Shown piece after piece: positions 1,344 through 21,014 of a stretch of 64,000 nt of DNA. The stretch spans positions 13,646 to 77,645 of the forward strand of contig JACPIN010000005.1 in assembly GCA_016188065.1 (NCBI GenBank), in the 5' to 3' direction. Position 1 is the stretch's first letter, and every line of letters begins with the position of its first letter. The position numbers were made by a program, and so were the translations under genes. Origin of the DNA: Candidatus Woesearchaeota archaeon. Its GTDB lineage: Archaea > Nanobdellota > Nanobdellia > SCGC-AAA011-G17 > ARS1403. A model generated the notes under the pieces. That model ran no database searches and was not told the origin of the DNA. It saw nothing but the letters and a program-made list of their open reading frames with translations.

Positions 1344-1433
1344 TTCTAGATATGTATTTTATATAAAAGTCCTTTTGTGAAACTAGTTTCAGTTACCGAA
1401 AACTTATTAAAAACAATAATTATTTGATAGATT

Positions 1434-1937
1434 ATGGAAAATAAAAATGTTGGATATCTAATTATGGGGATTTCTATATTAATCATATTTATTATCTTTC
1501 TGTTCAATAATGCAATGAAAGAAATAGTTACACAAGGTTGCCCGGCTGCACATCTAGGAATCTATTGCCCGGCATATAGAACAATAACGCAGCAAACTTA
1601 CTTATCCTTGAGTATAGTAGGACTGCTTATCACTGTCGGGTTAGTTTTGATATTCTCTAAACCTCAGAAGGAAATCCAGAAAGAGATAATTGTTCAGACA
1701 AAAACTATTGAAAAGAAACTTCCTAAGAAAAAAATTGACACTAGCGATCTTAAACCTGAGGAAAAACAAGTTTTTGAAATGATTCAAAATAATAAAGCAA
1801 TCTTTCAAGCAGACTTAATTGAAAAAACAGAGTTTGGAAAGGCAAAGATGACAAGGATAATTGACAGGTTAGAGGGTAAAAGTTTTGTGGAAAGAAAAAG
1901 GAGAGGAATGACTAACGTTGTGGTGCTGAAGGAATAA
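1434..1937 (+). CDS. Membrane-anchored winged-helix (MarR/TrmB-like) DNA-binding protein
   Basis: 167 aa; N-terminal TM helix plus a Cys pair (CPAAHLGIYCP), a second TM, and a C-terminal wHTH-like segment (QVFEMIQNNKAIFQADLIEKTEFGKAKMTRIIDRLEGKSFVERKRRG). Confidence 0.45.
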   Translation: MENKNVGYLIMGISILIIFIIFLFNNAMKEIVTQGCPAAHLGIYCPAYRTITQQTYLSLSIVGLLITVGLVLIFSKPQKEIQKEIIVQTKTIEKKLPKKKIDTSDLKPEEKQVFEMIQNNKAIFQADLIEKTEFGKAKMTRIIDRLEGKSFVERKRRGMTNVVVLKE

Positions 1938-1948
1938 TTTTTGCAAGT

Positions 1949-2620
1949 TTATCCAAAAATTCTGAAGACAAAGATTAAATAATATAAAGAGATCCCAAGC
2001 ATTAAAATTCCTGCTAACCTATTGATTGCTGATTTATGCTGAACTGCAAATCCTATAATTTTATCATTCCATTTTGAGGATAGTAATGAAAATATTAGAA
2101 GGGGGAAACCTAGACCTAGTCCAAATAATAAAAAATTAATCATGCTTGAGAAAAAGTTATCGATGATTAATGCCCTTGCAAAAAAGGCTGCTATGAAAGC
2201 TGGATTACAGGGGATTACGATAGCTCCGAAGAAGAAGCCGTATAGAAAAGCATTTAGTTTCGGATTCTTGCTTGTCGGTGTTTTTGGTTTTGGTATAAAC
2301 CTTGAAATGTCAAAATCAAATAAAAGCAAAATGCTTACAATCCCAAGAATTGAGAATGCTATTGGAGAAATTATTCCGATTATTTTTGTCAAAGAAATTT
2401 GAAATATTGTCGTGAATATTAATCCCAGCAGCAACATGAAAACTATCACGCCCAAAGTTATAGTCGCGCCGAACAATGCATAAATTTTTTTATTTCTTTC
2501 TTCTGAGGAGAACTGATTTGCAATGTATGCTAAGAAAGCGGGGTAAAGGGGAAGAACGCATACTGCTGTCAATGGTGTTAACAAACCCAAAACAAAAGAT
2601 GAAAAATCAACTAGTGCCAT
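1949..2620 (-). CDS. ccdA: CcdA/DsbD-family transmembrane thiol-disulfide electron transporter
   Basis: 223 aa, 6 TM; conserved CVLPLYPAFLAY (CcdA motif spCvlPllP) and a second Cys in IPCNP. Confidence 0.6.
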   Translation of the reverse strand: MALVDFSSFVLGLLTPLTAVCVLPLYPAFLAYIANQFSSEERNKKIYALFGATITLGVIVFMLLLGLIFTTIFQISLTKIIGIISPIAFSILGIVSILLLFDFDISRFIPKPKTPTSKNPKLNAFLYGFFFGAIVIPCNPAFIAAFFARALIIDNFFSSMINFLLFGLGLGFPLLIFSLLSSKWNDKIIGFAVQHKSAINRLAGILMLGISLYYLIFVFRIFG

Positions 2621-2621
2621 T

Positions 2622-3176
2622 TTAGCTGCATGAATTTATTGCCTCTTTTAATTCTGAGACAGATTTTACTCCTCTCCCCAACATCTTTGCTGATTGATCC
2701 TGACATATTAAAATTACAGGTGCTTGAGGTGCGTTTATTACCGAAGTGCCAAATTCTTCTATCAATTCTTTAGTCAGTTCTGCTGGTGAAATTGCATAGT
2801 ACCAGTCGAATTTGTTTCTTTGCAAATGCTCTCTTACTTTTTCTTCATCTTCATTTGAGTCTGTGTCTAGAGATATTGAAACTACAGAGTCCCCTATTTC
2901 TTCATGAAGCTCTTTTATTTTTCCTTGCTGCTTTGTACATACAGGACACCATACTGCAAAACTCTCCAGTAAAATCGGCTTGCCATTGAAATCGTTAATC
3001 GTAAATATTTTCTGAGAATTAATATCTTTTAATTGTGCATTTAAGATTGTTTCTGATAATTTTCCACTCGTTGGCTCTCTATCTGGAAGGGATGAATCTG
3101 TTGGAATTTCTGTGTGAGAGCAGCCAACTAAGAAAACTGAAAATGCTATGAATAAAAAATAAAATGATTTTTTCAT
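2622..3176 (-). CDS. Thioredoxin-fold lipoprotein (TlpA/ResA-like thiol-disulfide oxidoreductase)
   Basis: 184 aa; lipobox-like signal peptide (LVGCSH); WCPVC thioredoxin active site. Confidence 0.7.
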   Translation of the reverse strand: MKKSFYFLFIAFSVFLVGCSHTEIPTDSSLPDREPTSGKLSETILNAQLKDINSQKIFTINDFNGKPILLESFAVWCPVCTKQQGKIKELHEEIGDSVVSISLDTDSNEDEEKVREHLQRNKFDWYYAISPAELTKELIEEFGTSVINAPQAPVILICQDQSAKMLGRGVKSVSELKEAINSCS

Positions 3177-3218: not shown

Positions 3219-4514
3219 TTATTTCCTACAGACTAATGAATACATCGCATATCCTATTGCTGTCAAGATTATCCCGCCAATAACAACTTTTGAATTTAAG
3301 TGGAACAACATGAACAAGGAGCTTATAATTCCAAGAAAAGCAAGCACTGGAAACTTTCCAATGTTGCATGGAGATCTGAAAGTTCTTTTAAGCTTGGGAT
3401 ACTTATACCTAGAAACAATCAAAGCTGCATTAACAGTAATGAATGTTCCATAAATCGTGAAATCCGTTATTGAAGCAACTAAAGTTATATCTTTGAACAA
3501 AGTGAAAATCATTGTAAACAACATGACAAGAATAACTGCTATCCACGGTGTTTTTCTCTTTTCATGCACCCTCGATAAAAATCTTAATTTCCTGTATTCA
3601 TGACCCATCCCGTAGGTTAATCTAGACGTTGTTAAAAGCAATAACAAAACTGTATTTCCTGTAGAAAATAATGCAATCACGGATAAAATAAAGAAAGCTT
3701 TATCTCCAAAAACTGATGCCGCAACATCTGCCAGAGGAGCTTTGCTCTCCCCTAATACTTTATAATCAAGTATGCTGACTGCTGTAACTGCAACTAATAT
3801 GTAGATTATTGTTGTGATGATAATAGACAACACCAATGCTTTTGGAATAACTTTTTTTGCTGACTTTGTTTCTTCTGCCAGCTTTATAACGGCTTCAAAA
3901 CCTATAAATGCAAAAAAGATTAATGCTGCTGCAGCTGAAACCCCTGCAAACCCATTTGGCATCTCGAGAAGATTAACTGATCCTATTTTTGGTATTCCTA
4001 TAAAAATTATGAAAAGCAATCCAATGGTTTCTATAGCCGTGAAAAATACATTCAGCCACGAGCTCTGCTCAAGACCGTAATAATTGATGAATGAAAGAAT
4101 AACAACTAAAAGAATGGCAACAAGAAAAACAGGGATTGTAACAATGTTGGCGAATAAAGAAGAGAAATAACCTCCAAAGCCAAGAGCGACTGCAGCTGCT
4201 GAAATAACGCCTTCAAAGAAAATTAACCAAACAACTAAAAATCCTATGCGCTTTGAAAATGATTTTTCTGCATAAATATATTCACCTTCATCTTTTGAAT
4301 AAAGTGAAGAAAATTCAGCATAACTTAATCCTGTAAAAGCTGCAACGAAAGCTGCCAATAGAAAAGAGAGCCAAACTGCATTTCCAGCCATTCCTGCTGC
4401 TGATCCAATTAAGACATAAATTCCTGCTCCTAAAATAATTCCAACACCTGCAAATGTTGTCTGCCAGAGTGAAAGCCCTTTCTTAAGCCTTATTCCATCT
4501 TTAGATATTGTCAT
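3219..4514 (-). CDS. APC-superfamily amino-acid permease; possible arginine/ornithine or citrulline transporter given the context
   Basis: 431 aa, about 12 TM, Gly-rich helices typical of the APC fold; adjacent to the ornithine carbamoyltransferase gene. Confidence 0.7.
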   Translation of the reverse strand: MTISKDGIRLKKGLSLWQTTFAGVGIILGAGIYVLIGSAAGMAGNAVWLSFLLAAFVAAFTGLSYAEFSSLYSKDEGEYIYAEKSFSKRIGFLVVWLIFFEGVISAAAVALGFGGYFSSLFANIVTIPVFLVAILLVVILSFINYYGLEQSSWLNVFFTAIETIGLLFIIFIGIPKIGSVNLLEMPNGFAGVSAAAALIFFAFIGFEAVIKLAEETKSAKKVIPKALVLSIIITTIIYILVAVTAVSILDYKVLGESKAPLADVAASVFGDKAFFILSVIALFSTGNTVLLLLLTTSRLTYGMGHEYRKLRFLSRVHEKRKTPWIAVILVMLFTMIFTLFKDITLVASITDFTIYGTFITVNAALIVSRYKYPKLKRTFRSPCNIGKFPVLAFLGIISSLFMLFHLNSKVVIGGIILTAIGYAMYSLVCRK

Positions 4515-4532
4515 TTTATCTTTAAAGTAATT

Positions 4533-5393
4533 TTATTTTAATAGTTTTAATAATATGGCCTTTTCTATATGCAATCTGTTTTCTGCCTGATCATAAACTA
4601 AACTCTGCTTTGAATCAATGACCTCATCTGTTACCTCCTCATTTCTTGAAGCTGGAAGGCAGTGCATAAATTTCGCTTTTCCTAATAATTTTTTGTTTAC
4701 TTGAAACGGCTTGAGAAGGTTTTTTCTTTTTGCATATTGGGACTTCGGAACATGATAAGAATACCATGTATCTGTATAGACTATATCTCCTTTTGCATCT
4801 TTCGAACTAAATGAAAGAGAATATCTTCCAGAAATTTTGGTCTTCAATTCTTTTGGACAAACAATGTTCAACTTAATTCCTACCTTAGGACATGCATAAA
4901 TCAAGGAAGTTGTTATATTATTATCCGCATCTCCAATGAAAGTCAATTTTATTCCGTCTAATTTTCCAAAGTGTTCTTTTATCGTTAACAAATCTCCTAA
5001 TATCTGACATGGGTGGGAGAAATTTGTAAGCGCATTAATAACTGGGATTAAAGAATACTTTGCTAACTCTTCTAACTGCTTATGTTCATATAGTCTTGCC
5101 ATAATTACATTTACATATCTTGAAGTCACTTTTGAAAAATCCTTGATGGATTCTTTCTCTCCTAGAACTGAATGAGATAGATCATAGAAAATGGCATGCC
5201 CTCCTAATTGGTACATTGCTATATCGAAAGATAGATGTGTTCTTAATGAAGGCTTTGCAAACAGCATCAGCAAAGTTTTTCCTAATAATTTTTTAGAGAA
5301 TTTTTTTGGTTTTCTTTTTATTTTTTCTGCTAATGAGATAAAATCCAGAATTTCCTCTTTTGAAAAATCTTTTATGGATAAGAGATGTTTCAT
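4533..5393 (-). CDS. arcB: Ornithine carbamoyltransferase (catabolic type likely)
   Basis: 286 aa; SLRTH (STRTR-like carbamoyl-phosphate site), HPCQ and HCLP motifs of the OTCase family; clustered with carbamate kinase. Confidence 0.75.
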   Translation of the reverse strand: MKHLLSIKDFSKEEILDFISLAEKIKRKPKKFSKKLLGKTLLMLFAKPSLRTHLSFDIAMYQLGGHAIFYDLSHSVLGEKESIKDFSKVTSRYVNVIMARLYEHKQLEELAKYSLIPVINALTNFSHPCQILGDLLTIKEHFGKLDGIKLTFIGDADNNITTSLIYACPKVGIKLNIVCPKELKTKISGRYSLSFSSKDAKGDIVYTDTWYSYHVPKSQYAKRKNLLKPFQVNKKLLGKAKFMHCLPASRNEEVTDEVIDSKQSLVYDQAENRLHIEKAILLKLLK

Positions 5394-6712
5394 TTTTTAA
5401 TTTTGAAATTTTTTAGCAACTTTTTTAGATTTAACTTACCGACTTCATGCAGTTCATAATCTACATTCACAATTGGCTTGTTTATTTTTAATAATTTAGA
5501 TAAATCAAATGGGCTACCATCAATAACAACATCACATTTTGCTCTATTTATGGTATCTCTCAAATCCTTCATTTGTTTGTGACTATAACCCATTGCAGGT
5601 AGAATTTTTTTTAAATGACTATATTTTTTATAAACTTCTTTTATCGAGCCAACTGCATATTTCTCAGCATCAATAATTACTTTTGCTTTATACATTTTTG
5701 CTGCAACAGTTCCTGCACCGAATTTCATTTCTCCATGTGTTAAAGTTGGACCATCTTCAACAACTAAAACTCTCTTGTTTTTTATCATCTCGGGCTTGTC
5801 AACAATTATCTTGGATTTTGCCATGATCACTTTAGCTTGAGGATTATATTGCTTAATATTGGCTAAAACGGTTTTAATACCTCCTTTTGGTGCAGTATCT
5901 ATTTTGTTAACAACAAAGACATCAGCCATTAGAAAATTAGCTTCTCCTGGATGATATTTTAGCTCGTGTCCTGCTCTATGCGGATCAACTACAACTATAT
6001 GCATGTCTGGTTTATAGAAGGGCAGATCATTGTTCCCCGAATCGAAAATTACAACTTGCGCTTCTTTCTCTGCTCTTTTTATTATCTTTTTATAATCAAC
6101 ACCTGCATAGATTGGAATTCCTAATTTTATCCATGGCTCATATTCCTCTCTTTCTTCAATTGTTACATCTGCTTTCTTTAAATCATCATAAGATGAAAAT
6201 CTTTGAACTTCTTCTTTTAATAAATCTCCATATGGCATGGGATGTCTGATAGCTACTACCTTGTAACCTTTTTCTCTTAGAATAATCCCAATTTTCCTTG
6301 ATGTTTGTGATTTTCCTGCACCAGTCCTTACTGCGCATACTGCAATAATTGGAATATTGTTTGTAATCATGGTCGAGCTAGGTCCCAGTAGATAAAAATC
6401 AGCTCCTGCTGCCAGGCACATAGAAGCCTTGTGCATTACATATTCATGTGAAACATCCGAGTAAGCGAAAATAACCTTATCTACTCTTAATTTTTTAATT
6501 AAGTAAGTTAATTGTGATTCTGGATAGAAAGGAATATCCATTTTATATAACCTTCCAGCTAATTTCTTTGGAAAACTCCTATTTTCTATTCCCGGAATCT
6601 GGTTTTGTGTAAAAGCTACAACATCATAATATGGGTTGTCTTTGAAATATTGTAAGAATACATGGTAGTCCCTTCCTGCAGCTCCGAGGATGAGCACACG
6701 TTTTTTATCCAT
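5390..6712 (-). CDS. P-loop NTPase with N-terminal Rossmann-like domain; resembles the cyclic 2,3-diphosphoglycerate synthetase-like family (uncertain)
   Basis: 440 aa; N-terminal VLILGAAGRDYH; central Walker-A-like AVRTGAGKSQTS; translationally coupled between the OTC and carbamate kinase genes. Confidence 0.35.
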   Translation of the reverse strand: MDKKRVLILGAAGRDYHVFLQYFKDNPYYDVVAFTQNQIPGIENRSFPKKLAGRLYKMDIPFYPESQLTYLIKKLRVDKVIFAYSDVSHEYVMHKASMCLAAGADFYLLGPSSTMITNNIPIIAVCAVRTGAGKSQTSRKIGIILREKGYKVVAIRHPMPYGDLLKEEVQRFSSYDDLKKADVTIEEREEYEPWIKLGIPIYAGVDYKKIIKRAEKEAQVVIFDSGNNDLPFYKPDMHIVVVDPHRAGHELKYHPGEANFLMADVFVVNKIDTAPKGGIKTVLANIKQYNPQAKVIMAKSKIIVDKPEMIKNKRVLVVEDGPTLTHGEMKFGAGTVAAKMYKAKVIIDAEKYAVGSIKEVYKKYSHLKKILPAMGYSHKQMKDLRDTINRAKCDVVIDGSPFDLSKLLKINKPIVNVDYELHEVGKLNLKKLLKNFKIKK

Positions 6713-6813
6713 TAAATCACCTCTTTGTCACAAGCTTAAAGATAAGTATTGTTCTTTATATAACTTTTTATAATTTTTACTTTATAAACTAACAAATAAT
6801 TAATAAGATTCTC

Positions 6814-7332
6814 TCAGAAATATCTAAAAACATTCCCTTCAGTCATAAATACTAATACTATTATGCCTATAAGACTTAAGATTATACCCATTATGCTTAA
6901 TAGTACTATTTTATTTTTTGAATTTTTGTAAGAGATTAGCAGTCCGATAAGAGTTGATATAAAGAAGCTTAATGTACTAAAAACGATTAGAAATATCAGG
7001 AAAAAAATCCCTGAAAGACCAGCCATATCATATGAGCCTCCGCCTGATTTAAAGAGGTTCTGATTCATCCAACCTATAAGCAAGGTGAGAAATAAAAGTA
7101 TTATCGGCAAGGCAATTCCTATTAGAATCCCGATGTAAATAGGTTTTAGTACCTTGCTATTTAAGAAAAATCTTGAACTAAACAATAAGCTTAGCATGAC
7201 TACCATAAAAGGTATGAATATTAAAAAGGGCCATTCTTCGACTTCAAAAATCCCCCAGAAGATACCAACTAACCCTATAATAATTGTTGCAATCATTGCA
7301 ATTTTTACAGATTTGGAATAATCTTCTAGCAT
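6814..7332 (-). CDS. Small polytopic membrane protein (hypothetical)
   Basis: 172 aa, 5 hydrophobic helices, no motif recognised. Confidence 0.35.
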   Translation of the reverse strand: MLEDYSKSVKIAMIATIIIGLVGIFWGIFEVEEWPFLIFIPFMVVMLSLLFSSRFFLNSKVLKPIYIGILIGIALPIILLFLTLLIGWMNQNLFKSGGGSYDMAGLSGIFFLIFLIVFSTLSFFISTLIGLLISYKNSKNKIVLLSIMGIILSLIGIIVLVFMTEGNVFRYF

Positions 7333-7333
7333 T

Positions 7334-8248
7334 TTACTTTGTTATTATTGTAGCTGAGCTTCCTTTTAAAGCCTTCTGTAAATTTTCCGGAGAACAGATT
7401 ATAACTTTTTTTCCTTTTTTTTCTAGGAAATTAATTGCTGCCTCTATTTTCGGTCCCATTGATCCTGGGGGGAAATGTTCTTGCATATAATAATCCCTAA
7501 GACTATCAAGATGAACCTTCTTTATTGGTTTTTGTTGCTTTGTTCCATAATTTAAATATGCATAAGGAACTGATGTGATCATTATTAACACCTCGGCTTT
7601 GATAGAATTAGCTAAACATGCTGAAGCCAGATCTTTATCTATTACTGCTTCCACACCTTTTAATTTTCCATTCTCTTCTATGACTGGAATCCCCCCTCCG
7701 CCTGCTGCAATTATTGTTGTAGATTTTAGCAATTTTTGAATCGTTTTTGCCTCTAAAACTTTTATAGGTTTTGGCGATGGAACAACTCTTCGATAACCCC
7801 TGTCTGCATCTTTCCTTAGCTTATATTTATTTTTTAACTTATCCGCACGGAGTTTTGTGTAAAAAGGTCCAATGAATTTTGTTGGATCTCTGAATGCGGG
7901 ATCATTTTTATCCACTAAGACCTGGGTTAATATTGTTGCAACGTCTCTTTTATGACTTCTTAATGAATTGATTAGTTGTGCTTCTAAAGGATAACCGATT
8001 AAACCTTGAGACTCAGCTCCGAGAATATCCAACGGCATTGGAGGAATTTTCTTTTTTGCTAATTCATTCTGAAGAGCAAGGTATCCGATCTCAGGACCAT
8101 TTCCAAAAGAAATTACTACTTTATGTTTTTTGATTATCGGAGCTAGAACTTTACAAGTTTTTTTAATATTATTAATTAAATTATAATAAGTCTGCTTTTC
8201 ACCTTTCTTGATTAATGCATTCCCACCAAGAGCGATAACTAGTTTCAT
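7334..8248 (-). CDS. arcC: Carbamate kinase
   Basis: 304 aa; N-terminal MKLVIALGGNAL hallmark; amino-acid kinase fold motifs (IAAGGGGIPV). Confidence 0.9.
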   Translation of the reverse strand: MKLVIALGGNALIKKGEKQTYYNLINNIKKTCKVLAPIIKKHKVVISFGNGPEIGYLALQNELAKKKIPPMPLDILGAESQGLIGYPLEAQLINSLRSHKRDVATILTQVLVDKNDPAFRDPTKFIGPFYTKLRADKLKNKYKLRKDADRGYRRVVPSPKPIKVLEAKTIQKLLKSTTIIAAGGGGIPVIEENGKLKGVEAVIDKDLASACLANSIKAEVLIMITSVPYAYLNYGTKQQKPIKKVHLDSLRDYYMQEHFPPGSMGPKIEAAINFLEKKGKKVIICSPENLQKALKGSSATIITK

Positions 8249-9526
8249 TTAGGTATGGCTTTCTCCGCAAGTTAGATAGTTGCAGATTTTTCCCGTATGC
8301 TTAAATCCAGATTCGTTTATTTTTTTATTGACAACTTCAATGATTCCTAATGCCTGATCAATCTCATTTTTAGAAACAATATAAGGAGGGATAATACGAA
8401 TTCCTTTTTCACCGCAGCCAAGCAGCACTAATCCATGCTTTAATGATTCTATAATAAAGTTATTTCTAATGCCTTTATCAGCCAAATCAAAAGCTAACAT
8501 TAATCCTTTTCCGCGAACATTTTCCAGATTTAAATCATTAAGCCCCTTTTTTAGAGAGTATCCCCTCCTTGTTATATTGCTTAATAATTTTCTTTTTTTG
8601 ATTATCTCTATGGTTTTTAATCCGACTGCCATGTCCAAGATATGTCCTCCTCCCCACGTTGAAGAAATGCTTCCAGATTCTACTGAGAATTTTTTGCTTG
8701 CAATTGCTGCTCCTACCTGCAATGCCTTTGCTGAGCTCATTATATCTGGAGTTATATTAAAATGCTGATGCGCCCACCATTTTCCTGTCCTGCCCATGCC
8801 AGATTGGACTTCATCGATAATAAATGGAATGTTGTAAGATTTAGTTATTTTTCTAATACCTTTCACTAATTTTTCTGGAGCTACATTATAACCCCCTTCA
8901 CCTTGAATTGCTTCCATCAAAACAAAAGCTATTTTTTGAGCTCCATCCTGCTTGATTATTTTTCTTAATTTTTCAATAGCATCTTCTGAAAACGGAAGTG
9001 TTTTATTTTGCAATGAAAAAAAATTCTGCTTATGAATTGGTTTTGAATGTGTGTATGACAATGCCCCCAAAGTACGACCATGAAAATCATTCTGAAAAGA
9101 GATTCCGAATTTGGCTTTTTTCTGTCTTCTCATTGCAAGTTTAATACAATTCTCGACAGCTTCTGCTCCTGAGTTTACTAAGAATGCCTTGTCTAAATTT
9201 TTTGGAACTATTGTCAATAATTCTTCCAGCAGATCTGCATGTTCTTTTACATTAAAATCCTGGCCTGCATATTTTATCGGATGCTTTTTGTAACTTTTTA
9301 CAACTTTATTTAACTCGCGATTATTGTAGCCTAGTGGATTTGAAGCTATCTGGGATGCAAAATCCAAAAACCAGTTTCCGTCTATGTCTTTGAAATAACA
9401 TCCATCTCCTTTTTTGGAATGAACATAAGGATAAGGATCAGAATATGCAATGTTTAATTTTTTTATTTTCTTGATTATTATTTCTGATTTTGGTCCTGGA
9501 AGTTGTGTTTTTATTTTAAGGTTCAT
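8249..9526 (-). CDS. Class III PLP-dependent aminotransferase (ornithine/acetylornithine/GABA aminotransferase family)
   Basis: 425 aa; GAEAVENCIKLA; IIDEVQSGMGRTGKWW (the DEVQTGxGRTG motif with the Schiff-base Lys region). Confidence 0.8.
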   Translation of the reverse strand: MNLKIKTQLPGPKSEIIIKKIKKLNIAYSDPYPYVHSKKGDGCYFKDIDGNWFLDFASQIASNPLGYNNRELNKVVKSYKKHPIKYAGQDFNVKEHADLLEELLTIVPKNLDKAFLVNSGAEAVENCIKLAMRRQKKAKFGISFQNDFHGRTLGALSYTHSKPIHKQNFFSLQNKTLPFSEDAIEKLRKIIKQDGAQKIAFVLMEAIQGEGGYNVAPEKLVKGIRKITKSYNIPFIIDEVQSGMGRTGKWWAHQHFNITPDIMSSAKALQVGAAIASKKFSVESGSISSTWGGGHILDMAVGLKTIEIIKKRKLLSNITRRGYSLKKGLNDLNLENVRGKGLMLAFDLADKGIRNNFIIESLKHGLVLLGCGEKGIRIIPPYIVSKNEIDQALGIIEVVNKKINESGFKHTGKICNYLTCGESHT

Positions 9527-9863
9527 CTTTTCCTAGTACTTCTTTTATTTCTGCTATATATTTTTTCATATAGATTATTTCTTTTCTGATATCGCCTGTG
9601 CCCACTTTTATCTCATTAACATCACTCTTTATATGGCTTATATCATTACTTACTCTACTAAAAGAATATATTGTTTTTATCTTAAACTCGCCAAATTCTC
9701 TGTTTAAATTATATAATAATCCGCCTAAGAAAGTAAAGATGCTAATTGTAATTGCTAAATCTGTAGCAGAATGCCCTATAATTCTAGTTAAAACAAGATA
9801 AACTGATAACAAAAATAAAATTATTAACAAAATCTTCAACCAATCTATTTTTTTTATAGCCAT
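9516..9863 (-). CDS. Small two-TM membrane protein (hypothetical)
   Basis: 115 aa ORF overlapping the aminotransferase start by 11 nt; hydrophobic core. Confidence 0.3.
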   Translation of the reverse strand: MAIKKIDWLKILLIILFLLSVYLVLTRIIGHSATDLAITISIFTFLGGLLYNLNREFGEFKIKTIYSFSRVSNDISHIKSDVNEIKVGTGDIRKEIIYMKKYIAEIKEVLGKDEP

Positions 9864-9993
9864 GGAAACCCCTCTTTTATCAAGACTATAACTAATAAGA
9901 TTAAAAACGTTATTAGAACTATCAACAAAAAATAATCAAACCATCCTTTTTTCATATAATCTAAGAAGGATATTACAAAATATATAAAACTTG

Positions 9994-11379
9994 TTAATCT
10001 ATCCCCTGAGCTTTTTGTAAATGACCGCTGAAGTCAATGTAAACTGCCTTTTCCTCGCTAAATTCATCCAAACTCCATCCTGCCTCTTTCCCCCATCCAG
10101 TATCTTTTGTTCCTCCAAATGGAAGATGAACTTCTGCTCCTATTGTTGAAGAGTTGATGTAAGTAATTCCAAATTCTAATTCATTAATTGCTCTGAATGC
10201 ATATTGCATATTTTCTGTGTAAATTGCCGAGGATAAACCGTACTTTATCCCGTTACAAACCTTTATTGCTTCATCTATGTTTTTTATTTTTATTAAAACA
10301 GTGATCGGACCGAAAATTTCTTCCTGTGCAATCCTGAAATTTGGTTTAACATCTGAGAAAATAGTTGGCTTGAAAAAGAAACCTTTTCCTTTAATTCCCT
10401 CTCCTCCGCACAATAACTTTGCTCCTTCATTTTTTCCTATGTCAATATATTTGTAAGATTTTTCCAACGCTGCTTTGTTGATTAACGGACCAATATCTGT
10501 CGCTTTTGACAACCCATTTCCTAATTTTAATTTCCTTGTCTTATTCACCAAGATCGTTTCAAATTTCTTGAAGACTTTCTCATGAATAATAACCCTCGAA
10601 GCGGCTGTGCATCTTTGACCTGTAGTTCCAAATGCCCCCCATAGAACCCCTTCTAAAGCAAGATTAAGATTTGCATCCTCCATTATAATTATAGCGTTCT
10701 TGCTACCTAGCTCGAGATTTACTTTTTTCAGCCCTGCATTTTCTCTGATAAATTTTCCTGTCTCGCGAGATCCTGTGAAGGATAAACCGCGTATTCTCGG
10801 ATGCCTGATTATTGGATTCCCGACCTTGTTTCCTGAGCCAGTTACCAGATTCAGAACTCCTTTTGGGAGCCCGGTTTTTTCTATTATTTTTACTAATTCA
10901 ACTGCACATAATGGAGTGTCTGAAGACGGCTTGAATACGATAGTGTTCCCACAAATTAGTGCCGGAGCTATTTTCCATGCTGGGATTGCTATTGGAAAGT
11001 TCCATGGAGCAATTAAACCAACTACCCCAATTGGGATTCTGACTGTTGCATTGAATTTATTTTTTAATTCACTTGGAGTTGTTCTGCCAAATAACCTTCT
11101 ACCTTCTCCAGCCATGTATTCAAAAATATCTATTGCTTCCTGGACATCTCCTGCTGCTTCCTTGTAGACCTTGCCCATTTCTTTTACTTCTAATTTTGCC
11201 AGCTTATCTTTCTCTTTTTTTAACAAATCACGAATCTTGAAGAGAATTTCAGCTCGTTTTGGTGCTGGTGTGTCTCTCCATGATGAAAATGCTTTTTCTG
11301 CTGCCTGAACAGCGAGCTCAACATCATGCTCATCTGAATCCTGGAATTTTCCTAATGGCTGCTCAGTTGCTGGATTCAA
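9994..11379 (-). CDS. NAD(P)-dependent aldehyde dehydrogenase (candidate glutamate-5-semialdehyde/P5C or succinate-semialdehyde DH)
   Basis: 461 aa; ELGSKNA (ELGGK motif), catalytic GQRCTAASR, NAD-binding GSxxxG. Confidence 0.85.
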   Translation of the reverse strand: MNPATEQPLGKFQDSDEHDVELAVQAAEKAFSSWRDTPAPKRAEILFKIRDLLKKEKDKLAKLEVKEMGKVYKEAAGDVQEAIDIFEYMAGEGRRLFGRTTPSELKNKFNATVRIPIGVVGLIAPWNFPIAIPAWKIAPALICGNTIVFKPSSDTPLCAVELVKIIEKTGLPKGVLNLVTGSGNKVGNPIIRHPRIRGLSFTGSRETGKFIRENAGLKKVNLELGSKNAIIIMEDANLNLALEGVLWGAFGTTGQRCTAASRVIIHEKVFKKFETILVNKTRKLKLGNGLSKATDIGPLINKAALEKSYKYIDIGKNEGAKLLCGGEGIKGKGFFFKPTIFSDVKPNFRIAQEEIFGPITVLIKIKNIDEAIKVCNGIKYGLSSAIYTENMQYAFRAINELEFGITYINSSTIGAEVHLPFGGTKDTGWGKEAGWSLDEFSEEKAVYIDFSGHLQKAQGID

Positions 11380-11519
11380 AGAAAAGAAAGTTTTTCCTGT
11401 TTGTGAAGAAGTCCATTTTCCATCAATGTAATTCTTATAAGTTTCTATCTTAACTACCTCTTTATTATATAGATATTAACTGGCAAAGATTTTTATATAC
11501 CTTTCGATTATATCTAATT

Positions 11520-12884
11520 ATGATTTATGACCTAGTTGTTATTGGCGGCGGAAGTGCCGGCTATAGTGCTGCTAAACTTGCTGCTTCTTATAAAAAAAAT
11601 GTCTGTATTATTGAGAAAGGGCCTTTTGGCGGATTGTGTATATTGAGGGGGTGCATGCCGAGCAAGACATTATTGTGGAGTGCGAGAATTGCTGAGCTAA
11701 TAAGGAATGCTAAAGAATTTGGGATTCATGTAGATCAAAACATTAAAATTGATGCCAAACATATTGTTGAAAGAAAAAATAAAATAATAAAAGGATTTGC
11801 AGATTATAGACTAGATAGTGTTAAGAAAAACAAACATATTGATTTGATTTATGGAAAAGCAAGCTTCATTTTTAAAAACAAAGTTCAAGCCGGAGGAAAA
11901 GTAATTGAAGGAGAGAATTTTTTGATTTCTACCGGGAGCAAAATATCTATTCCAAATATTCCTGGATTGAAAGAAGCGGGTTATCTTACTAGCGACGAGG
12001 CATTGGAGCTTAAAAAGTTTCCAAAATCGTTGATAGTTTTAGGGGGAGGCCCTGTTACTTTAGAGTTAGCTTATTATTTTTTTAATCTTGGGGTTGAAGT
12101 CATAATAATTCAAAGAAGCGATCATGTTATGAGCGATAATGATGAAGATTTGGCTGAAGTCATTGAAGAGAGCTTTAGAAAAGAAGGAATTAAAGTTTAC
12201 ACTGGAACTTTCTTGAAAAAAGTTTCTAAAGTTGGAAACATAAAAGCAGTTGAGTTTGAGCATGGTAAGAAAAACGTTAATGTTAAAGCTGAAGAAATAT
12301 TAGTTGGATTAGGAAGAATACCTGATTTTGACGGATTAAATTTGCAAAGGACTGGAATGAAACTAGATGGTAAGGGAATTCCTATATTAAATGAATACCT
12401 TCAAACTTCTGTTAAAAATATTTATGTTGCTGGTGATGCTAGCAAAATTTTAGAGGTTGTTAACGTTGCTGTTGAGCAAGGGAGAGTTGCTGCTGAAAAT
12501 ATGTTTGGGAAAAAAGAGAAACTTGATTATCATAAATTCCCCGCTGCTGTTTTTACACATCCAGAAGTTGCTTGGATTGGAGTTACTGAAAAAGAAGTTA
12601 AAGAGAAAAATATGAACGCTGAAACTGCAAAATTGCCTTATGAAGACTTGGGAAAAGCTATGTGCCTTGGTGAAACTGAAGGTTTTATCAAAATGATTAT
12701 GGATAAGAAAAGCAAAAGAATCTTAGGTGTGGCTATTGTCGGGCATTTAGCAAGTGATATAATTCATGAAGCTGTTCCTTTGCTTTATAACAAAAATACT
12801 ATTTATGATTTAGCTAAAATGCAGCATATTCACCCTACCTTTGGAGAGATTTACAGTTACTTAGTTGAGGATTGTTGCGATTAA
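11520..12884 (+). CDS. Class I FAD-dependent pyridine nucleotide-disulfide oxidoreductase (Lpd/MerA-like) with a C-terminal Cys-Cys
   Basis: 454 aa; GGGSAGYSAA FAD site, redox-active GGLCILRGCMPSK, C-terminal HIHPTFGE dimer-interface His, and a terminal EDCCD. Confidence 0.8.
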   Translation: MIYDLVVIGGGSAGYSAAKLAASYKKNVCIIEKGPFGGLCILRGCMPSKTLLWSARIAELIRNAKEFGIHVDQNIKIDAKHIVERKNKIIKGFADYRLDSVKKNKHIDLIYGKASFIFKNKVQAGGKVIEGENFLISTGSKISIPNIPGLKEAGYLTSDEALELKKFPKSLIVLGGGPVTLELAYYFFNLGVEVIIIQRSDHVMSDNDEDLAEVIEESFRKEGIKVYTGTFLKKVSKVGNIKAVEFEHGKKNVNVKAEEILVGLGRIPDFDGLNLQRTGMKLDGKGIPILNEYLQTSVKNIYVAGDASKILEVVNVAVEQGRVAAENMFGKKEKLDYHKFPAAVFTHPEVAWIGVTEKEVKEKNMNAETAKLPYEDLGKAMCLGETEGFIKMIMDKKSKRILGVAIVGHLASDIIHEAVPLLYNKNTIYDLAKMQHIHPTFGEIYSYLVEDCCD

Positions 12885-13885
12885 AGGATAATCTTTTAAA
12901 TTTAATTTTGTATGACGGAGATATGAACACTGTTAAGATTTCTGCTAATGATGTTGAAAGAATAGCTAGCAATCTTCCTATGAAGGAGATTGTGAATTTT
13001 TTGGAAGATATACTTAGGGCAAGCCATGACGGGAAAATTAAAGTTACCGACAAAAAAGTTGTCCCCCCAGAGAGCAATGAGCCATATCATTTTCATCTTG
13101 AGCTAGAAACAGAGGATGAAAGAGAAGTTAAGGTCAGAAAAGTGATTGACGAAAGCAGGCCCGATGGTGTCAATGTTAAGAAAAATACTTTAATAACTCT
13201 GATAAATTCCGATAGGATATATGAAATTTTTGGTGACTTTATAACTGATACACGGACTGGAGCTTCCGGTGCCCTGGCTGCAAAGTATTTGACGGAAAAT
13301 CCGAGTGTTATCGCAATTGTTGGAGCTGGTAAAGTTCCAAGACAGTTTGCTTTAATTGCTGATTATCTTTTTAACCCTAGGGAGATTAGGTTTGCTACGA
13401 GAAGTGAAAAATCTAGAATTGAATTTTACGAATTTCTTAAAAATAATACTGATGCAGAGATTCAAGCATATGATATATTTAACTTCGATCATAGGAAGAG
13501 GCTGTTGAAAGATGCAGACATATTGTTTGAAGCAGCTCCTTTGTATAAAGATGGAGAAGACGTAAAATTTAAATTAAAAGAGATAATGTTGATGAGATCT
13601 GGCGCTCATATTTCTTCTATGACCGGTGATGGAAACCAGCATAATTTCCATGAGGATGTTTTGTTAAAAAGTGTTATTGTCGTTGATGATGAAAACTCTG
13701 CAAGGAAAAATTCTGAATTAAGGCACCTTGCTGAGAATGAAGGTAATGTTATTGGAACATTATTCGATGCTGCAGCCGGCAAACTTGAGATATATAAACA
13801 TCAGCTAACATTTTATGATTCAAGCGGAAATGCTCCTATGGATAGACTAGTGGAATTAGTTGTTAAAGAATATAATAAAGATTAA
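12872..13885 (+). CDS. Ornithine cyclodeaminase/mu-crystallin family protein (ornithine cyclodeaminase or archaeal alanine dehydrogenase type)
   Basis: 337 aa; TDTRTGASGALAAKYL and IAIVGAGKVPRQFA Rossmann motif typical of OCD/mu-crystallin. Confidence 0.65.
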   Translation: MLRLKDNLLNLILYDGDMNTVKISANDVERIASNLPMKEIVNFLEDILRASHDGKIKVTDKKVVPPESNEPYHFHLELETEDEREVKVRKVIDESRPDGVNVKKNTLITLINSDRIYEIFGDFITDTRTGASGALAAKYLTENPSVIAIVGAGKVPRQFALIADYLFNPREIRFATRSEKSRIEFYEFLKNNTDAEIQAYDIFNFDHRKRLLKDADILFEAAPLYKDGEDVKFKLKEIMLMRSGAHISSMTGDGNQHNFHEDVLLKSVIVVDDENSARKNSELRHLAENEGNVIGTLFDAAAGKLEIYKHQLTFYDSSGNAPMDRLVELVVKEYNKD

Positions 13886-14991
13886 ATCTTGACTGCGCAT
13901 ATTTTGCATTTTTCTAGAACTCTTTTTCTTGCTATCTCCAACGCTGCTGCTCGGGGATATGTTTTTTTCTTTTCTGCTTGCGTTAAAACCAAATCTGTAT
14001 TCTTTCTAACTTTCTCCTCAACCATCCTGAACATTTTTTTTTCATTTCCGCCAGTGTATTCCACATAACTGCTTATAACTCCGCCAGCATTTGCAACGAA
14101 ATCGGGAACAACGAGGATTCCTTTTCTATGCAAGAGCTCTTCAATTTGTTCGGTCATTGGAATATTGGAACCTTCAACAATCAGCTTTGCCCTTACAGAA
14201 TTTATATCGCCTGATTTTATAATATCTGGAATTGCTGCGGTTATTAAAACATCTACTGGAGATTGGATAATATCCCTGCACGAATCTTTTTTTCCATTGT
14301 AATTTACAACAGAGCCTGTTTCTTCTTTTATTTTCATTAATTTCTCGTAATCAATTCCTTTTTCTACAAAGATGCAACCTTTAGAATCTGAAACAGCTTT
14401 CAATGTTGCACCTGCTTCAGTCAGAAATTTCACTGTAAAGGTTCCTACATTGCCGAAACCTTCAACTGCGAAAGAAACATTTTTTACATCTTTTTTCATG
14501 TGCTTTAAAGCTACAAGAGTAGAGTGCGCAACTCCGAATCCTGTGCTGCCTAATTCATGAGGGATGCCTCCCATTTTCTTCGGCTTGCCAGTACACGCTT
14601 TTTTATTCCCGTTGGCTTTTGCAAACCACTCCATTTCCTGCTCAGCAGTATTTATATCAGGAGCTGCAATATAATATTCCGGGCAGATTACTTTTAACGC
14701 TTTTGAAAAAGCTTCAATGATTTCTTTTTTCTTCTCAAGCGAAAATTGCCTAGGGTCAGCAATGATTCCTGATTTCCCACCACCGAAAGGCAAATCGGCC
14801 ATAGCATTTTTCCATGTCATTGTTCTTGCTAACTTTGCAACTTCATTCATTGAAACTGTTGGCGTCATCCTAATCCCACCTTTAGCAGGACCTAATGCAA
14901 GATTATCGAGAATGACGTAACCCCTCATTCCCACTTTTGGATTATAAACTTCAATTATTTTTTCAGGCCCGTAGGCATCAAATTCTACCAT
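13882..14991 (-). CDS. Glu/Leu/Phe/Val dehydrogenase-family amino-acid dehydrogenase (glutamate dehydrogenase-like)
   Basis: 369 aa; AKGGIRM and LPFGGGKSG GDH signatures; C-terminal NAD-binding GFGNVG. Confidence 0.85.
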   Translation of the reverse strand: MVEFDAYGPEKIIEVYNPKVGMRGYVILDNLALGPAKGGIRMTPTVSMNEVAKLARTMTWKNAMADLPFGGGKSGIIADPRQFSLEKKKEIIEAFSKALKVICPEYYIAAPDINTAEQEMEWFAKANGNKKACTGKPKKMGGIPHELGSTGFGVAHSTLVALKHMKKDVKNVSFAVEGFGNVGTFTVKFLTEAGATLKAVSDSKGCIFVEKGIDYEKLMKIKEETGSVVNYNGKKDSCRDIIQSPVDVLITAAIPDIIKSGDINSVRAKLIVEGSNIPMTEQIEELLHRKGILVVPDFVANAGGVISSYVEYTGGNEKKMFRMVEEKVRKNTDLVLTQAEKKKTYPRAAALEIARKRVLEKCKICAVKI

Positions 14992-15739: not shown

Positions 15740-16783
15740 TTAAAAAGTATGTTTCTTTGGCGGGTTTTTTAGAAATTCATACAGTATTTTTATAGTTCCT
15801 TCTATATCGCGCATATCTGAAATTCCAATTGTTGAGTGAATGTTTCTAACTGCCACTCCTATCGCTGTTGAAGGCGTCCCACCTTTTGACAACATTATAT
15901 TAGTTGCATCAGTTGTGCCGAATGAAGAAACATCTTTTTGTAAGTTAACTTTTAATTTCTTAGATATCTTCTCCAGCATATTATTTAGGTGCTTGTCTGC
16001 AATCATCTCTGCATCCTTTACAGTTATTACCGGACCATTGCCTAGCATCCTTGTAGAGCCAACTGCCCCATCTCTTGCTGAAACAACATCTATAGCTATC
16101 CCCCATTCAGGCTTTAGATTATAAATTGAAGTCTTTGCTCCGTATAACCCAATCTCTTCCTGCACTGTAAATATAAAATAGATATCTGCTCTTGCCATTT
16201 TTAGCCTTCTTGCCAGCTCTATAAGAATATAACAACCAGTTCTGTCATCAAGGGCTTTTCCCGATATTACATTCTTGTCACCGAGATATTCAAAATGATG
16301 AAGCGGAATTATATAACAGCCAACATCAATGCCTTTTTTCTTACAACCTTCTTTAGTAAGCCCTACGTCTACATAAAGCTCTGAAATCGGAGGGATATCT
16401 TTCCTATCTAGGGATCTGCCGTCATGAATTTCTTCGAATGTAATAACTCCATGGCAAATTACTTTATTCTTTTCATTCATGATTTGAACTTTCTGGCCAA
16501 CTAGCGCGATAGTATCAACGCCACCGATAGCAGTGATCTTAAGATAGCCGTCGGCATCTACCTTGCTAACCATCAATCCGATTTCATCCATGTGAGCGGC
16601 TAGAACTATTACAGGCCCTTTTCCTTTTTTCCTGCAAATTAAATTTCCCAAGCTATCTGTTTCGATCTTGTTTACATACCTCTTCATCTCTTTTTTAATT
16701 AAGTTTCTTACTAGGTCCTCATCTCCACTTGGACTGACTGTGTTAATTAATTTCTGCAGAAGAGCTGTTGATATTTTATTCAC
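15740..16783 (-). CDS. M42-family metallo-aminopeptidase (TET/FrvX-like)
   Basis: 347 aa; AHMDEIGLMV and DDRTGC metal-binding motifs of peptidase M42. Confidence 0.85.
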   Translation of the reverse strand: MNKISTALLQKLINTVSPSGDEDLVRNLIKKEMKRYVNKIETDSLGNLICRKKGKGPVIVLAAHMDEIGLMVSKVDADGYLKITAIGGVDTIALVGQKVQIMNEKNKVICHGVITFEEIHDGRSLDRKDIPPISELYVDVGLTKEGCKKKGIDVGCYIIPLHHFEYLGDKNVISGKALDDRTGCYILIELARRLKMARADIYFIFTVQEEIGLYGAKTSIYNLKPEWGIAIDVVSARDGAVGSTRMLGNGPVITVKDAEMIADKHLNNMLEKISKKLKVNLQKDVSSFGTTDATNIMLSKGGTPSTAIGVAVRNIHSTIGISDMRDIEGTIKILYEFLKNPPKKHTF

Positions 16784-16801: not shown

Positions 16802-18016
16802 TTATTTCTTTAATAATCTTTTTCTTTTTATTTTTGCTAGTAGTTTTGCTTTTGTTCTGTAATATCCCAAGTCTTCTATAACCCCTTGCCTATAACCATG
16901 GTCTAATTTTCTTATTTCTTTCTGTATCTTTTTTATCTCATTCCCAGACAGCTCTTTAAAGTTGAAACATCTTTTTAATTTAAAGACAATCTCTGCTAAT
17001 TTCAATCTTAGTTTTCCTTCTTTTATCTTTTTAATTGATTTTTTTTCGATTAATATTAATACAGCCAGGATAACTGCGATAATTAGCTTGAGGTATTTAT
17101 TTGAAAAGATATTAGATTCTGCTATTTCTATTTCCTTTTCAAATGATGTTGTTTTATCTTTATACTTAACAAGCATAACAACTTTATAACTTCCTGCTGG
17201 CAATTCACTTGTTTTAAAAGGCAATTTGAGAGTATTTGAAACAATAAACCTGCCTTCATTTTTTATGACTACCTCACTATTCCTGATTAATAAATTTGTA
17301 ATTGATACGGATTTTTCCTCGTCTGTGTTTGAAAATATATAAAAGTTAAGATCTGCTTTGCCAGACAAACTTTTTTCCTCCATGTAAATATTGAAAGAAA
17401 TCATTTCATCAACTTGTGTTCCTACTTTTAGAATTTCAATTGTCTGAGACGCTGTTGCTGAGTAGTCCAGGTAATGCACTTTAATATTTAACTTGTATAA
17501 TCCCTGTATCGATGATGGAATCCATAACCTAGAATTCAAAACCTTATCTTCATTTCTTGCTATAAAGATTGTTTCTTCTCCTGTTGAAAAGGCCTTTCCA
17601 GTCTTAAAATCTTCTAAAGAGTAACTTATGATTACATCATCGGAAATTTGGCTCATTTCTTTAATCAGATAAGAAAAATCAAGAAACTCTCCTGCGATCA
17701 TTGGAGAGTCTGCGTGGATTAATTTAATATCAAAAAGTCTTAAGCAATCTCCATCACGACAGATCAAACCAGGGGAGCAATCATTATTGGATAAACATCC
17801 TGAAAAGCTTTTTCCGCCACTACCTCCGCCGCCACTTGTAGCCGTAGTTGTTGTCGATGTTTGCACTGCTTCTTCTCCCACTCCATAACTTCCTTTTCCA
17901 TAATCCCCCTCTCCATAATTTGCTGCTTGCACTAATTGTAAAGAAATAAAAAATAACACAATTAAACAAAGAAAAATATTTCTTCTATAATTTTTTCTTT
18001 TATCAATATGCGGCAT
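16802..18016 (-). CDS. Secreted cell-surface protein with C-terminal TM anchor and basic cytoplasmic tail
   Basis: 404 aa; signal peptide, Gly/Thr/Cys-rich linker (TSTTTTATSGGGGSGG, CLSNNDCSPGLICRDGDC), beta-rich body, C-terminal TM (LKLIIAVILAVLILI) then KRKRLLKK. Confidence 0.45.
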   Translation of the reverse strand: MPHIDKRKNYRRNIFLCLIVLFFISLQLVQAANYGEGDYGKGSYGVGEEAVQTSTTTTATSGGGGSGGKSFSGCLSNNDCSPGLICRDGDCLRLFDIKLIHADSPMIAGEFLDFSYLIKEMSQISDDVIISYSLEDFKTGKAFSTGEETIFIARNEDKVLNSRLWIPSSIQGLYKLNIKVHYLDYSATASQTIEILKVGTQVDEMISFNIYMEEKSLSGKADLNFYIFSNTDEEKSVSITNLLIRNSEVVIKNEGRFIVSNTLKLPFKTSELPAGSYKVVMLVKYKDKTTSFEKEIEIAESNIFSNKYLKLIIAVILAVLILIEKKSIKKIKEGKLRLKLAEIVFKLKRCFNFKELSGNEIKKIQKEIRKLDHGYRQGVIEDLGYYRTKAKLLAKIKRKRLLKK

Positions 18017-19760: not shown

Positions 19761-19853
19761 TCTTCCCTCTTTTTATAATAAAAATGCTTGAGATTATTTA
19801 AAGATTTGGGTTATTTTTCAGATAAAGGAGATATAATGATAAACTTTAGCCTT

Positions 19854-21002: not shown

Positions 21003-21014
21003 AATTCTTTTAAA

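Follow-up and report, generated by a model that had tools for sequence, protein, structure and literature searches.

We propose that a gene cluster in a 64-kb stretch of Woesearchaeota DNA (the window; G+C content, ~33%) encodes the ArcE form of the arginine deiminase (ADI) pathway, called the arginine synthetase pathway, with an extension into ornithine catabolism. We put the probability of this reading at roughly 0.8. The gene at its center, arcE, encodes a P-loop protein of 440 amino acids (aa) and shares its strand with arcB, the gene for an ornithine carbamoyltransferase (OTC), and arcC, the gene for a carbamate kinase. The identities of arcB and arcC, the orthology of arcE, and its conserved synteny are read from sequence; the reaction we assign to ArcE is taken from the literature and from one protein, TK2200 of Thermococcus kodakarensis. 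The first-pass annotation of this DNA had placed the P-loop gene outside the known pathway, as a new regulator or accessory component, and had described a citrulline pathway that could start from arginine if an ADI were encoded elsewhere. Instead, the P-loop gene is predicted to be an ortholog of arcE, which was characterized in 2024 (PMC11032458). Since the P-loop gene is an arcE ortholog, the cluster would not be awaiting an ADI from elsewhere but would encode a complete arginine synthetase pathway.

TK2200 (ArcE) catalyzes the reaction L-arginine + ADP + Pi -> L-citrulline + NH3 + ATP (Michimori, Yokooji & Atomi, PNAS 2024, PMC11032458). It was formerly annotated as hypothetical or as a "GTPase" (PMC11032458), and the NCBI entry that is 100% identical to the 440-aa protein of the window carries the name "GTPase" as well. 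The same study reports that ArcE stands in for ADI in genomes that have arcC but lack arcA and that arcE sometimes clusters with arcB and arcC (PMC11032458). A Pfam scan of the 63 larger open reading frames (ORFs) across the window found no ADI, agmatine deiminase, argG/argH, or carbamoyl-phosphate synthetase (CPS) family. It also gave no ADI/amidinotransferase match of the kind that a hydrolytic, arcA-type enzyme would give. The first-pass annotation was thus right that the cluster lacks ADI.

We related the P-loop protein to TK2200 through the ends of the TK2200 ORF. Published primers at both ends (Front Microbiol 2026, PMC13260591) translate to the N terminus MAEKKKKRVLI and to the C terminus KNCEKLKK followed by the stop codon. 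We scanned metagenome contigs with a degenerate DNA pattern of this N terminus and found six loci, all of which run on into MAEKKKKRVLILGAAGRDFHNF, the conserved start of the family with its LGAAGRDFHNF motif. The three complete ORFs among them encode 449 aa and end in NWVKNCEKLKKE or NWVKNCEKLRRE (KNCEKLKKE or KNCEKLRRE), with mismatches to the primers at 1 to 2 of 33 nucleotides (nt) and 4 to 6 of 29 nt. On one of the contigs (L086; 51.6% G+C), pyrB-pyrI lies 2 kb downstream of the 449-aa ORF, as the T. kodakarensis locus tags (TK2195/TK2196 and TK2200) would lead one to expect. Because their ends match the primers and pyrB-pyrI is syntenic, we consider the 449-aa ORFs to be close Thermococcus orthologs of TK2200. 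The P-loop protein of the window is 63% identical to them over 434 of its 440 aa (565 bits).

The wider family supports the same assignment. In a neighbor-joining tree, the DPANN sequences formed one group inside a core clade that also held the Thermococcus proteins. The homologs from Hyperthermus (48% identity) and Pyrodictium (43% identity), genera that are listed as arcE holders (PMC11032458), fell further out than the Thermococcus proteins. The family comprises at least 491 clusters (50% identity) at E <= 1e-30, and homologs that are 55 to 61% identical occur in Chloroflexota, Aminicenantes, Bathyarchaeia, Thermoplasmata, Heimdallarchaeota, Brocadia, and many other groups. Ten distant representatives of the 50% clusters were named "predicted GTPase" only, with no Thermococcus among them, and a search that started from a family member of Thermoproteota retrieved homologs of Hyperthermus, Pyrodictium, and Ignisphaera but none of Thermococcales. 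We then considered the 63 positions that are at least 95% conserved in 280 family members. The window protein retains 61 of them, and the two exceptions, W223F and G225S, both fall in the sequence FDSGNND (positions 223 to 229), where the family has WDGGNND. The closest relatives vary in this motif too (WDAGNND, FDGGNND, and YDSGNND). The Walker A motif of the window protein reads R129-T-G-A-G-K-S135 (G131-A-G-K-S135). Thus, the P-loop protein is an ortholog of TK2200-type ArcE as judged by sequence, and we predict its reaction from this orthology and from its gene context.

The first-pass annotation had tied the P-loop gene functionally to arcB and arcC, and synteny across many phyla bears this out. 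The idea thereby withstands the refuting condition named in that annotation, a lack of synteny with arc genes in other genomes. In a sample of 80 species-representative genomes with an arcE homolog, a carbamate kinase gene lay directly downstream of the homolog in 20, and an OTC gene came next in 10. The adjacency of arcE and arcC spans Firmicutes, Aminicenantes, Myxococcota, WOR-3, Calditrichota, Brocadia, and others. On a Salinirubellus plasmid (NZ_CP147842.1; homolog at 7001 to 8341 of locus L081), the arcE homolog is divergent from arcC, and its PGAP name is "cyclic 2,3-diphosphoglycerate synthase."

We compared five DPANN loci in greater depth: that of the window (L001), a second Woesearchaeota locus (L088), a TARA Nanoarchaeia locus (L089), an Aenigmarchaeota locus (L090), and a Pacearchaeota locus (L091). 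In both L088 and L089, the gene order is arcC, M32 peptidase, arcE, arcB, ALDH (aldehyde dehydrogenase), aminotransferase, and then M42 and M29 peptidases, with a few other genes interspersed in L088. The order in L090 is aminotransferase, M42, MarC, arcE, arcC, arcB, and, after a gap, ALDH, and L091 has ALDH, aminotransferase, and arcE, each separated from the next by other genes. Thus, arcE is accompanied by an aminotransferase and an ALDH gene in all four loci other than that of the window, and arcB and arcC stand beside it in three of the four. ALDH orthologs (60 to 69% identity) are found near arcE in all five loci and aminotransferase orthologs (56 to 65% identity) in L001, L088, L089, and L091; the aminotransferase near arcE in L090 is also of class III but only 34% identical. 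Three of the loci, L088, L089, and L090, have M42 peptidase genes adjoining the arc genes.

Not all of the neighbors share this conservation. A tblastn search of 91 related loci gave no counterpart near arcE for orf172, for orf115, for the disulfide oxidoreductase, for the protein resembling the ornithine cyclodeaminase (OCD) family, or for the Glu/Leu/Phe/Val (ELFV) dehydrogenase, and the APC permease was not conserved beside arcE elsewhere. Because they lack conserved linkage, we left the first five out of the functional module. A link of the disulfide oxidoreductase and OCD-like genes to the arc genes is unsupported, and we treat this pair as neighbors only. The 12-kb "supercluster" of the first-pass annotation is therefore only in part a conserved unit: arcC, arcE, arcB, the aminotransferase, ALDH, and M42 recur together, and the other genes do not.

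Two of the related loci, L088 and L089, hold further genes of interest. About 6 to 10 kb upstream of arcE, both carry a gene for a 451-aa protein resembling ADP-forming acyl coenzyme A synthetases (CoA_binding / Succ_CoA_lig / Ligase_CoA_2). Near the arc module are also a class I aminotransferase and peptidases of families M32, M42, M29, M24, and M16. This gene set is reminiscent of peptide fermentation of the Thermococcus type.

In the proposed pathway, arginine would enter the cell, perhaps through the APC permease, or be freed by neighboring peptidases; the M42 aminopeptidase of the window could supply free amino acids in this way. ArcE would convert L-arginine, ADP, and Pi to L-citrulline, NH3, and ATP. 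ArcB would then split citrulline by phosphorolysis into ornithine and carbamoyl phosphate, and ArcC would transfer the phosphate of carbamoyl phosphate to ADP, giving a second ATP. Substrate-level phosphorylation would in this way yield 2 ATP per arginine, compared with 1 ATP when the deiminase is hydrolytic. Ornithine would probably be converted to glutamate-5-semialdehyde by the class III aminotransferase, and the semialdehyde probably to glutamate by the ALDH. The short ELFV dehydrogenase may in turn restore 2-oxoglutarate, the acceptor.

We infer the catabolic direction, what the transporter carries, and what the aminotransferase, ALDH, and dehydrogenase do; for the OTC and the carbamate kinase, it is the context and not the sequence that suggests a catabolic role. 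The permease is a candidate arginine importer rather than an ArcD-type antiporter, as it scores 27 bits against the arginine-ornithine antiporter model TIGR03810 (cutoff, 591). The class III aminotransferase is a probable ornithine omega/delta-aminotransferase. Its best relative in the Protein Data Bank (PDB) is 7vno, a 454-aa "4-aminobutyrate aminotransferase" of P. horikoshii (199 bits). We take 7vno to be PH1423, which has been characterized as an ornithine delta-aminotransferase (PMC9986279), and T. kodakarensis sends its ArcE-derived ornithine through a class III ornithine aminotransferase, TK2101. The ALDH is a probable glutamate-5-semialdehyde/pyrroline-5-carboxylate dehydrogenase. A role as glutamate dehydrogenase is only plausible for the 369-aa ELFV protein, whose best NCBIfam match is GdhA_Arch (246 bits; cutoff, 750). 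The assignments of this protein and of the OCD-like protein are weak, since both score under every NCBIfam equivalog cutoff. Of the ornithine catabolism foreseen in the first-pass annotation, the onward route to glutamate is plausible, but no conserved linkage ties the OCD-like and Glu-type dehydrogenase genes to arcB, arcC, or arcE.

Several observations do not fit easily with the proposed pathway or leave it room to be wrong. The FDSGNND sequence of the window protein departs from a motif that is nearly invariant in the family, though its nearest relatives vary there. The link to TK2200 runs through close metagenomic orthologs and not through the deposited TK2200 sequence, and the ArcE reaction has been measured for TK2200 alone (PMC11032458). 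Both the ALDH and the aminotransferase score below all NCBIfam equivalog cutoffs. The absence of ADI covers 64 kb of the genome only. The OTC could act on a different substrate, because it has SYH in place of the ornithine-binding SMG and SLRTH in place of STRTR. Lastly, the ArcE reaction lies near equilibrium (dG0', -6.8 kJ/mol), and its direction therefore depends on context.

This last point raises the question of whether the same enzymes run anabolically. Carbamate kinase would then make carbamoyl phosphate, OTC would make citrulline, and ArcE would form arginine from citrulline, NH3, and ATP, a route of arginine biosynthesis independent of argG/argH. The ArcE reaction runs both ways in vitro, in vivo the enzyme sustains arginine synthesis if citrulline is given, and the authors of the ArcE paper propose an anabolic role in some bacteria without argG/argH, genes that we did not find in the window either. 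However, neither the window nor the related DPANN loci yielded genes for ornithine biosynthesis or CPS, and the equilibrium favors deimination. The module is accompanied by peptidases, an amino acid permease, a gene resembling those for ornithine aminotransferases, and ALDH, all of which point to degradation. Because biosynthetic genes for ornithine and carbamoyl phosphate were not found there and the neighborhood is rich in peptidases and bears a permease, we consider the anabolic direction unlikely and favor arginine degradation.

The OTC raises a different question, that of substrate. It keeps the HPCQ, HCLP, and DxxxS elements but reads SLRTH for STRTR (S(T/L)RTR) and SYH for SMG (DTWYSYH compared with the ornithine-binding DxWxSMG). 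The SYH variant is common to three related OTCs of Woese- and Nanoarchaeia (L001, L088, and L089), and 10 other arcE-linked OTCs keep SMG. Together with the altered WDGGNND motif of ArcE, this could mean that a diverged ArcE paralog and a variant OTC act on another guanidino/ureido pair, such as a modified arginine/citrulline analog. We find this improbable. The OTC is short yet exceeds the OTC equivalog cutoff with its other elements intact, ArcE retains nearly all of its conserved positions, and close relatives with a canonical WDGGNND occupy the same gene context.

We also asked what the fold of the P-loop protein says about its function. With an AlphaFold model (AF2; mean confidence score pLDDT, 91.7) as the query, the top Foldseek match in the PDB was the cyclic 2,3-diphosphoglycerate synthetase (cDPGS) of Methanothermus fervidus (PDB 8ORK/8ORU; PMC10690619), with an E value of 4e-16 and 16% identity. 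The next matches were the tetraacyldisaccharide 4'-kinase LpxK of Aquifex aeolicus (4EHY/4EHX), followed by HypB, UreG, and SRP GTPases. LpxK has the P-loop kinase core in common with our protein (4EHY: E value, 5e-8; TM score, 0.59 on the target), but the identity is 13 to 14%, the substrate is unrelated, and the N-terminal domain has no counterpart. TK2200 is likewise reported to resemble LpxK (4EHY) structurally and cDPGS only distantly, and it was because of the likeness to LpxK that its authors tried nucleotides (PMC11032458). DUF1611 (2obn and 2g0t), which the first-pass annotation had suggested as a family to check, gave only a marginal fold match (E value, ~1e-3) and is unsupported.

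The label "GTPase," which both NCBI and JGI give to the family, rests on a partial match to the Pfam cobW domain (23.5 bits; cutoff, 20.7) that spans only profile positions 112 to 179 of 180; NCBIfam (release 20.0) gave no match to the protein. If the label were correct, the protein would be a G3E/SIMIBI-type GTPase like CobW, HypB, or UreG and would serve as a metallochaperone or as a regulator of the arc enzymes, in line with the new component envisaged in the first-pass annotation. An NKxD-like motif, NKID at positions 269 to 272, is in keeping with this, as are HypB and UreG in the list of fold matches. However, a near-TK2200 Thermococcus ortholog yields the same partial cobW match, and TK2200 itself prefers ADP, with 8% relative activity on GDP (PMC11032458). 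In addition, the sequence has no CxCC metal motif, and 63% identity to a characterized type of enzyme speaks for catalysis. Since the domain match is incomplete and TK2200 prefers another nucleotide, we reject a G3E GTPase, to which we give very little chance, and retain ArcE as the identity of the protein.

The remaining name to account for is that of cDPGS, the enzyme which the first-pass annotation had correctly recognized as a remote likeness. Among solved structures it is the closest match, has the same two-domain build (an N-terminal alpha/beta domain and a P-loop kinase-like domain), and is the source of the name that NCBI and PGAP attach to many homologs. However, the cDPGS chains score only 22.8 bits against the protein (phmmer; E value, 3e-4) and 27 to 38 bits against the family profile, with the match confined to the C-terminal third, and scores within the protein's own family exceed 500 bits. 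The 2,3-DPG ligands of cDPGS are K145/R146 in the P-loop GTGKRIGKT (PMC10690619). In an alignment anchored on the Walker A GK[ST], a low-scoring HMM stretch that is fixed by the P-loop, these residues correspond to T130/G131 (AVRTGAGKS), which are invariant in the ArcE family. Because of the low scores and the loss of these ligand residues, we regard the protein as related to cDPGS only at a distance and as standing outside that family. Genomic context and taxonomic range differ as well: the protein, unlike cDPGS, has arc genes as conserved neighbors, and cDPG is confined to hyperthermophilic methanogens (PMC10690619), whereas the host here, at 33% G+C, belongs to the DPANN archaea. The possibility that the protein makes this compatible solute is thus effectively refuted.

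The proposed pathway can be set beside two known systems. It has the three enzymes of the T. kodakarensis pathway (ArcE/TK2200, ArcB, and ArcC), a P-loop/LpxK-like fold in ArcE, no ADI (here, within 64 kb), and an onward route of ornithine to a class III aminotransferase. The three genes of T. kodakarensis are dispersed (TK2200, TK0871, and TK2158), whereas those of the window form one same-strand cluster with the permease, aminotransferase, and ALDH genes. The window also differs in the variant SMG loop of its OTC and in the membrane protein gene between arcC and arcE. In addition, T. kodakarensis is a hyperthermophile, and the host here is a low-G+C DPANN archaeon with a reduced genome. With the classical ADI pathway, arcABC(D), it shares the arcB and arcC steps, the logic of ATP formation at the substrate level, and the release of NH3 and CO2. 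In that pathway, however, arcA encodes a hydrolytic enzyme with a guanidino-modifying fold, whereas the window encodes an unrelated P-loop enzyme that would keep the energy as ATP and so raise the yield from 1 to 2 ATP. No ArcD-type antiporter was found in the window.

The genomes of DPANN archaea are tiny, and how these organisms conserve energy is often unresolved. The pathway itself is already known, and the novelty is not a new mechanism but an ArcE cluster in a DPANN archaeon; we found no description of ArcE in DPANN in the literature that we searched. Reading the misnamed "GTPase" as ArcE would give them a complete pathway with a yield of 2 ATP per arginine. More tentatively, at odds that we place slightly below even, the arcC-arcE-arcB module, together with ornithine aminotransferase, ALDH, and peptidases, may be a conserved island for arginine and peptide fermentation in several DPANN lineages (Woese-, Nano-, Pace-, and Aenigmarchaeota), maybe one of their main routes to ATP, with an OTC that carries a clade-specific SYH. 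If so, the island would explain the "orphan" carbamate kinase of Woesearchaeota whose genomes allowed no energy pathway to be pieced together; one study of a Woesearchaeota metagenome-assembled genome recorded arcC but "no full energetic pathway." A parallel is the ADI system that benefits ultrasmall Saccharibacteria (PMC8764695). The ArcE family has no model in the Pfam-A and NCBIfam (release 20.0) libraries that we searched, and the RefSeq/PGAP names of its homologs (P0021, P0120, P0286, and P0294) are "cyclic 2,3-diphosphoglycerate synthase" or "GTPase." Because the family lacks a model and its public names mislead, metabolic reconstructions will go on missing ArcE.

The layout of the locus is given in Table 1. 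In the direction of transcription, the minus-strand genes (3219 to 11379) are ALDH, orf115, aminotransferase, arcC, orf172, the spacer, arcE, arcB, and permease. The genes named in the first-pass annotation (permease, OTC, P-loop protein, carbamate kinase, aminotransferase, ALDH, OCD-family protein, and Glu-type dehydrogenase) are all where it had put them, but its list had left out orf172, orf115, and the disulfide oxidoreductase. It had also described the P-loop gene as translationally coupled to both arcB and arcC. The arcE stop and the arcB start do share 4 nt (5390 to 5393). There is no coupling to arcC, however, which lies 0.6 kb upstream of arcE and is separated from it by orf172 and the spacer.

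Table 1. Features of the arc locus and of the rest of the window
Feature	Coordinates	Strand	Length	Evidence and remarks
Possible disulfide-handling genes	849-3176	-		DsbB-like, DsbD-type transmembrane, and redoxin/thioredoxin-like proteins, encoded one after another a short way downstream of the permease gene
APC-superfamily amino acid permease	3219-4514	-	431 aa	Pfam AA_permease_2, 176 bits; 18 nt downstream of arcB
arcB, OTC	4533-5393	-	286 aa	Pfam OTCace_N and OTCace; TIGR00658, 321 bits (cutoff, 281); PRK00779, 329 bits (cutoff, 306)
arcE, P-loop protein	5390-6712	-	440 aa	Predicted ortholog of arginine synthetase/ATP-forming arginine deiminase
Spacer	6713-6813	-	101 nt	AT-rich; upstream of arcE; read from sequence
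orf172	6814-7332	-	172 aa	Predicted membrane protein, ~5 transmembrane segments (hydropathy)
arcC, carbamate kinase	7334-8248	-	304 aa	TIGR00746, 374 bits (cutoff, 358)
Class III aminotransferase	8249-9526	-	425 aa	Pfam Aminotran_3, 309 bits; abuts arcC start
orf115	9516-9863	-	115 aa	N-terminal membrane anchor (hydropathy), charged tail
ALDH, NAD(P)-dependent	9994-11379	-	461 aa	Pfam Aldedh, 567 bits
Pyridine nucleotide-disulfide oxidoreductase	11520-12884	+		403 bits, just below the dihydrolipoyl dehydrogenase cutoff of 409
OCD/mu-crystallin-family gene	12872-13885	+		Pfam, 76 bits, weak; overlaps the disulfide oxidoreductase gene by 13 nt
ELFV dehydrogenase, short	13882-14991	-	369 aa	Pfam ELFV_dehydrog and N-terminal domain
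M42 aminopeptidase	15740-16783	-	347 aa	Pfam Peptidase_M42, 283 bits
Region with Peptidase_S74 protein	16802-22139	-		Possible viral remnant or cell surface adhesin
Peptidase_S74 protein	18003-19760	-	585 aa	C-terminal "chaperone of endosialidase" domain
NTP_transf_2/Polbeta nucleotidyltransferase	27362-27910	-		Small
NTP_transf_2/Polbeta nucleotidyltransferase	41724-42320	-		Small
AAA_14 + DUF4143 ATPase	42666-43931	-		
AAA_14 + DUF4143 ATPase	44255-45550	-		
NTP_transf_2/Polbeta nucleotidyltransferase	46226-46744	-		Small
Retropepsin-like protein and RimK-family ATP-grasp ligase	49756-51161	+	109 aa; 359 aa	Genes overlap by 4 nt

The spacer ahead of arcE contains the TATA-box-like elements TTTATAAA and TTATATAAAG and a ribosome-binding site for arcE, GAGGTGA, 5 nt ahead of the ATG. 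We infer from these elements that it is a possible internal promoter for arcE, arcB, and the permease gene. A scan for sigma-70 promoters and terminators was uninformative (50 sites compared with 49.8 expected from shuffles), as expected for an archaeon. On the other side of the spacer, orf172 starts 1 nt past the arcC stop. It had no Pfam or NCBIfam match and no tblastn homolog in the 91 loci and is lineage specific; in relatives, an M32 carboxypeptidase fills its slot between arcC and arcE. The start of the aminotransferase gene is overlapped by 11 nt by orf115, which has no family matches and no homolog in the other arcE loci. The disulfide oxidoreductase and OCD-like genes diverge from the minus-strand genes, and the ELFV dehydrogenase gene is convergent with this plus-strand pair.

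Several features of the window lie outside the arc cluster. The genes for the DsbB-like, DsbD-type, and redoxin/thioredoxin-like proteins resemble a system for handling disulfides, here in a DPANN archaeon. Beyond the M42 aminopeptidase gene, the Peptidase_S74 protein's C-terminal domain is typical of phage tail fibers. It has a 404-aa ORF without family beside it and a 374-aa ORF, also without family, one gene further, and this region could be a viral remnant or a cell surface adhesin. The three small nucleotidyltransferases and the two AAA_14 + DUF4143 ATPases are sets of paralogous families repeated within 20 kb. On the plus strand, a gene for a protein with a retropepsin-like "putative ATP-dependent zinc protease" domain overlaps the start of the gene for a RimK-family ATP-grasp ligase.

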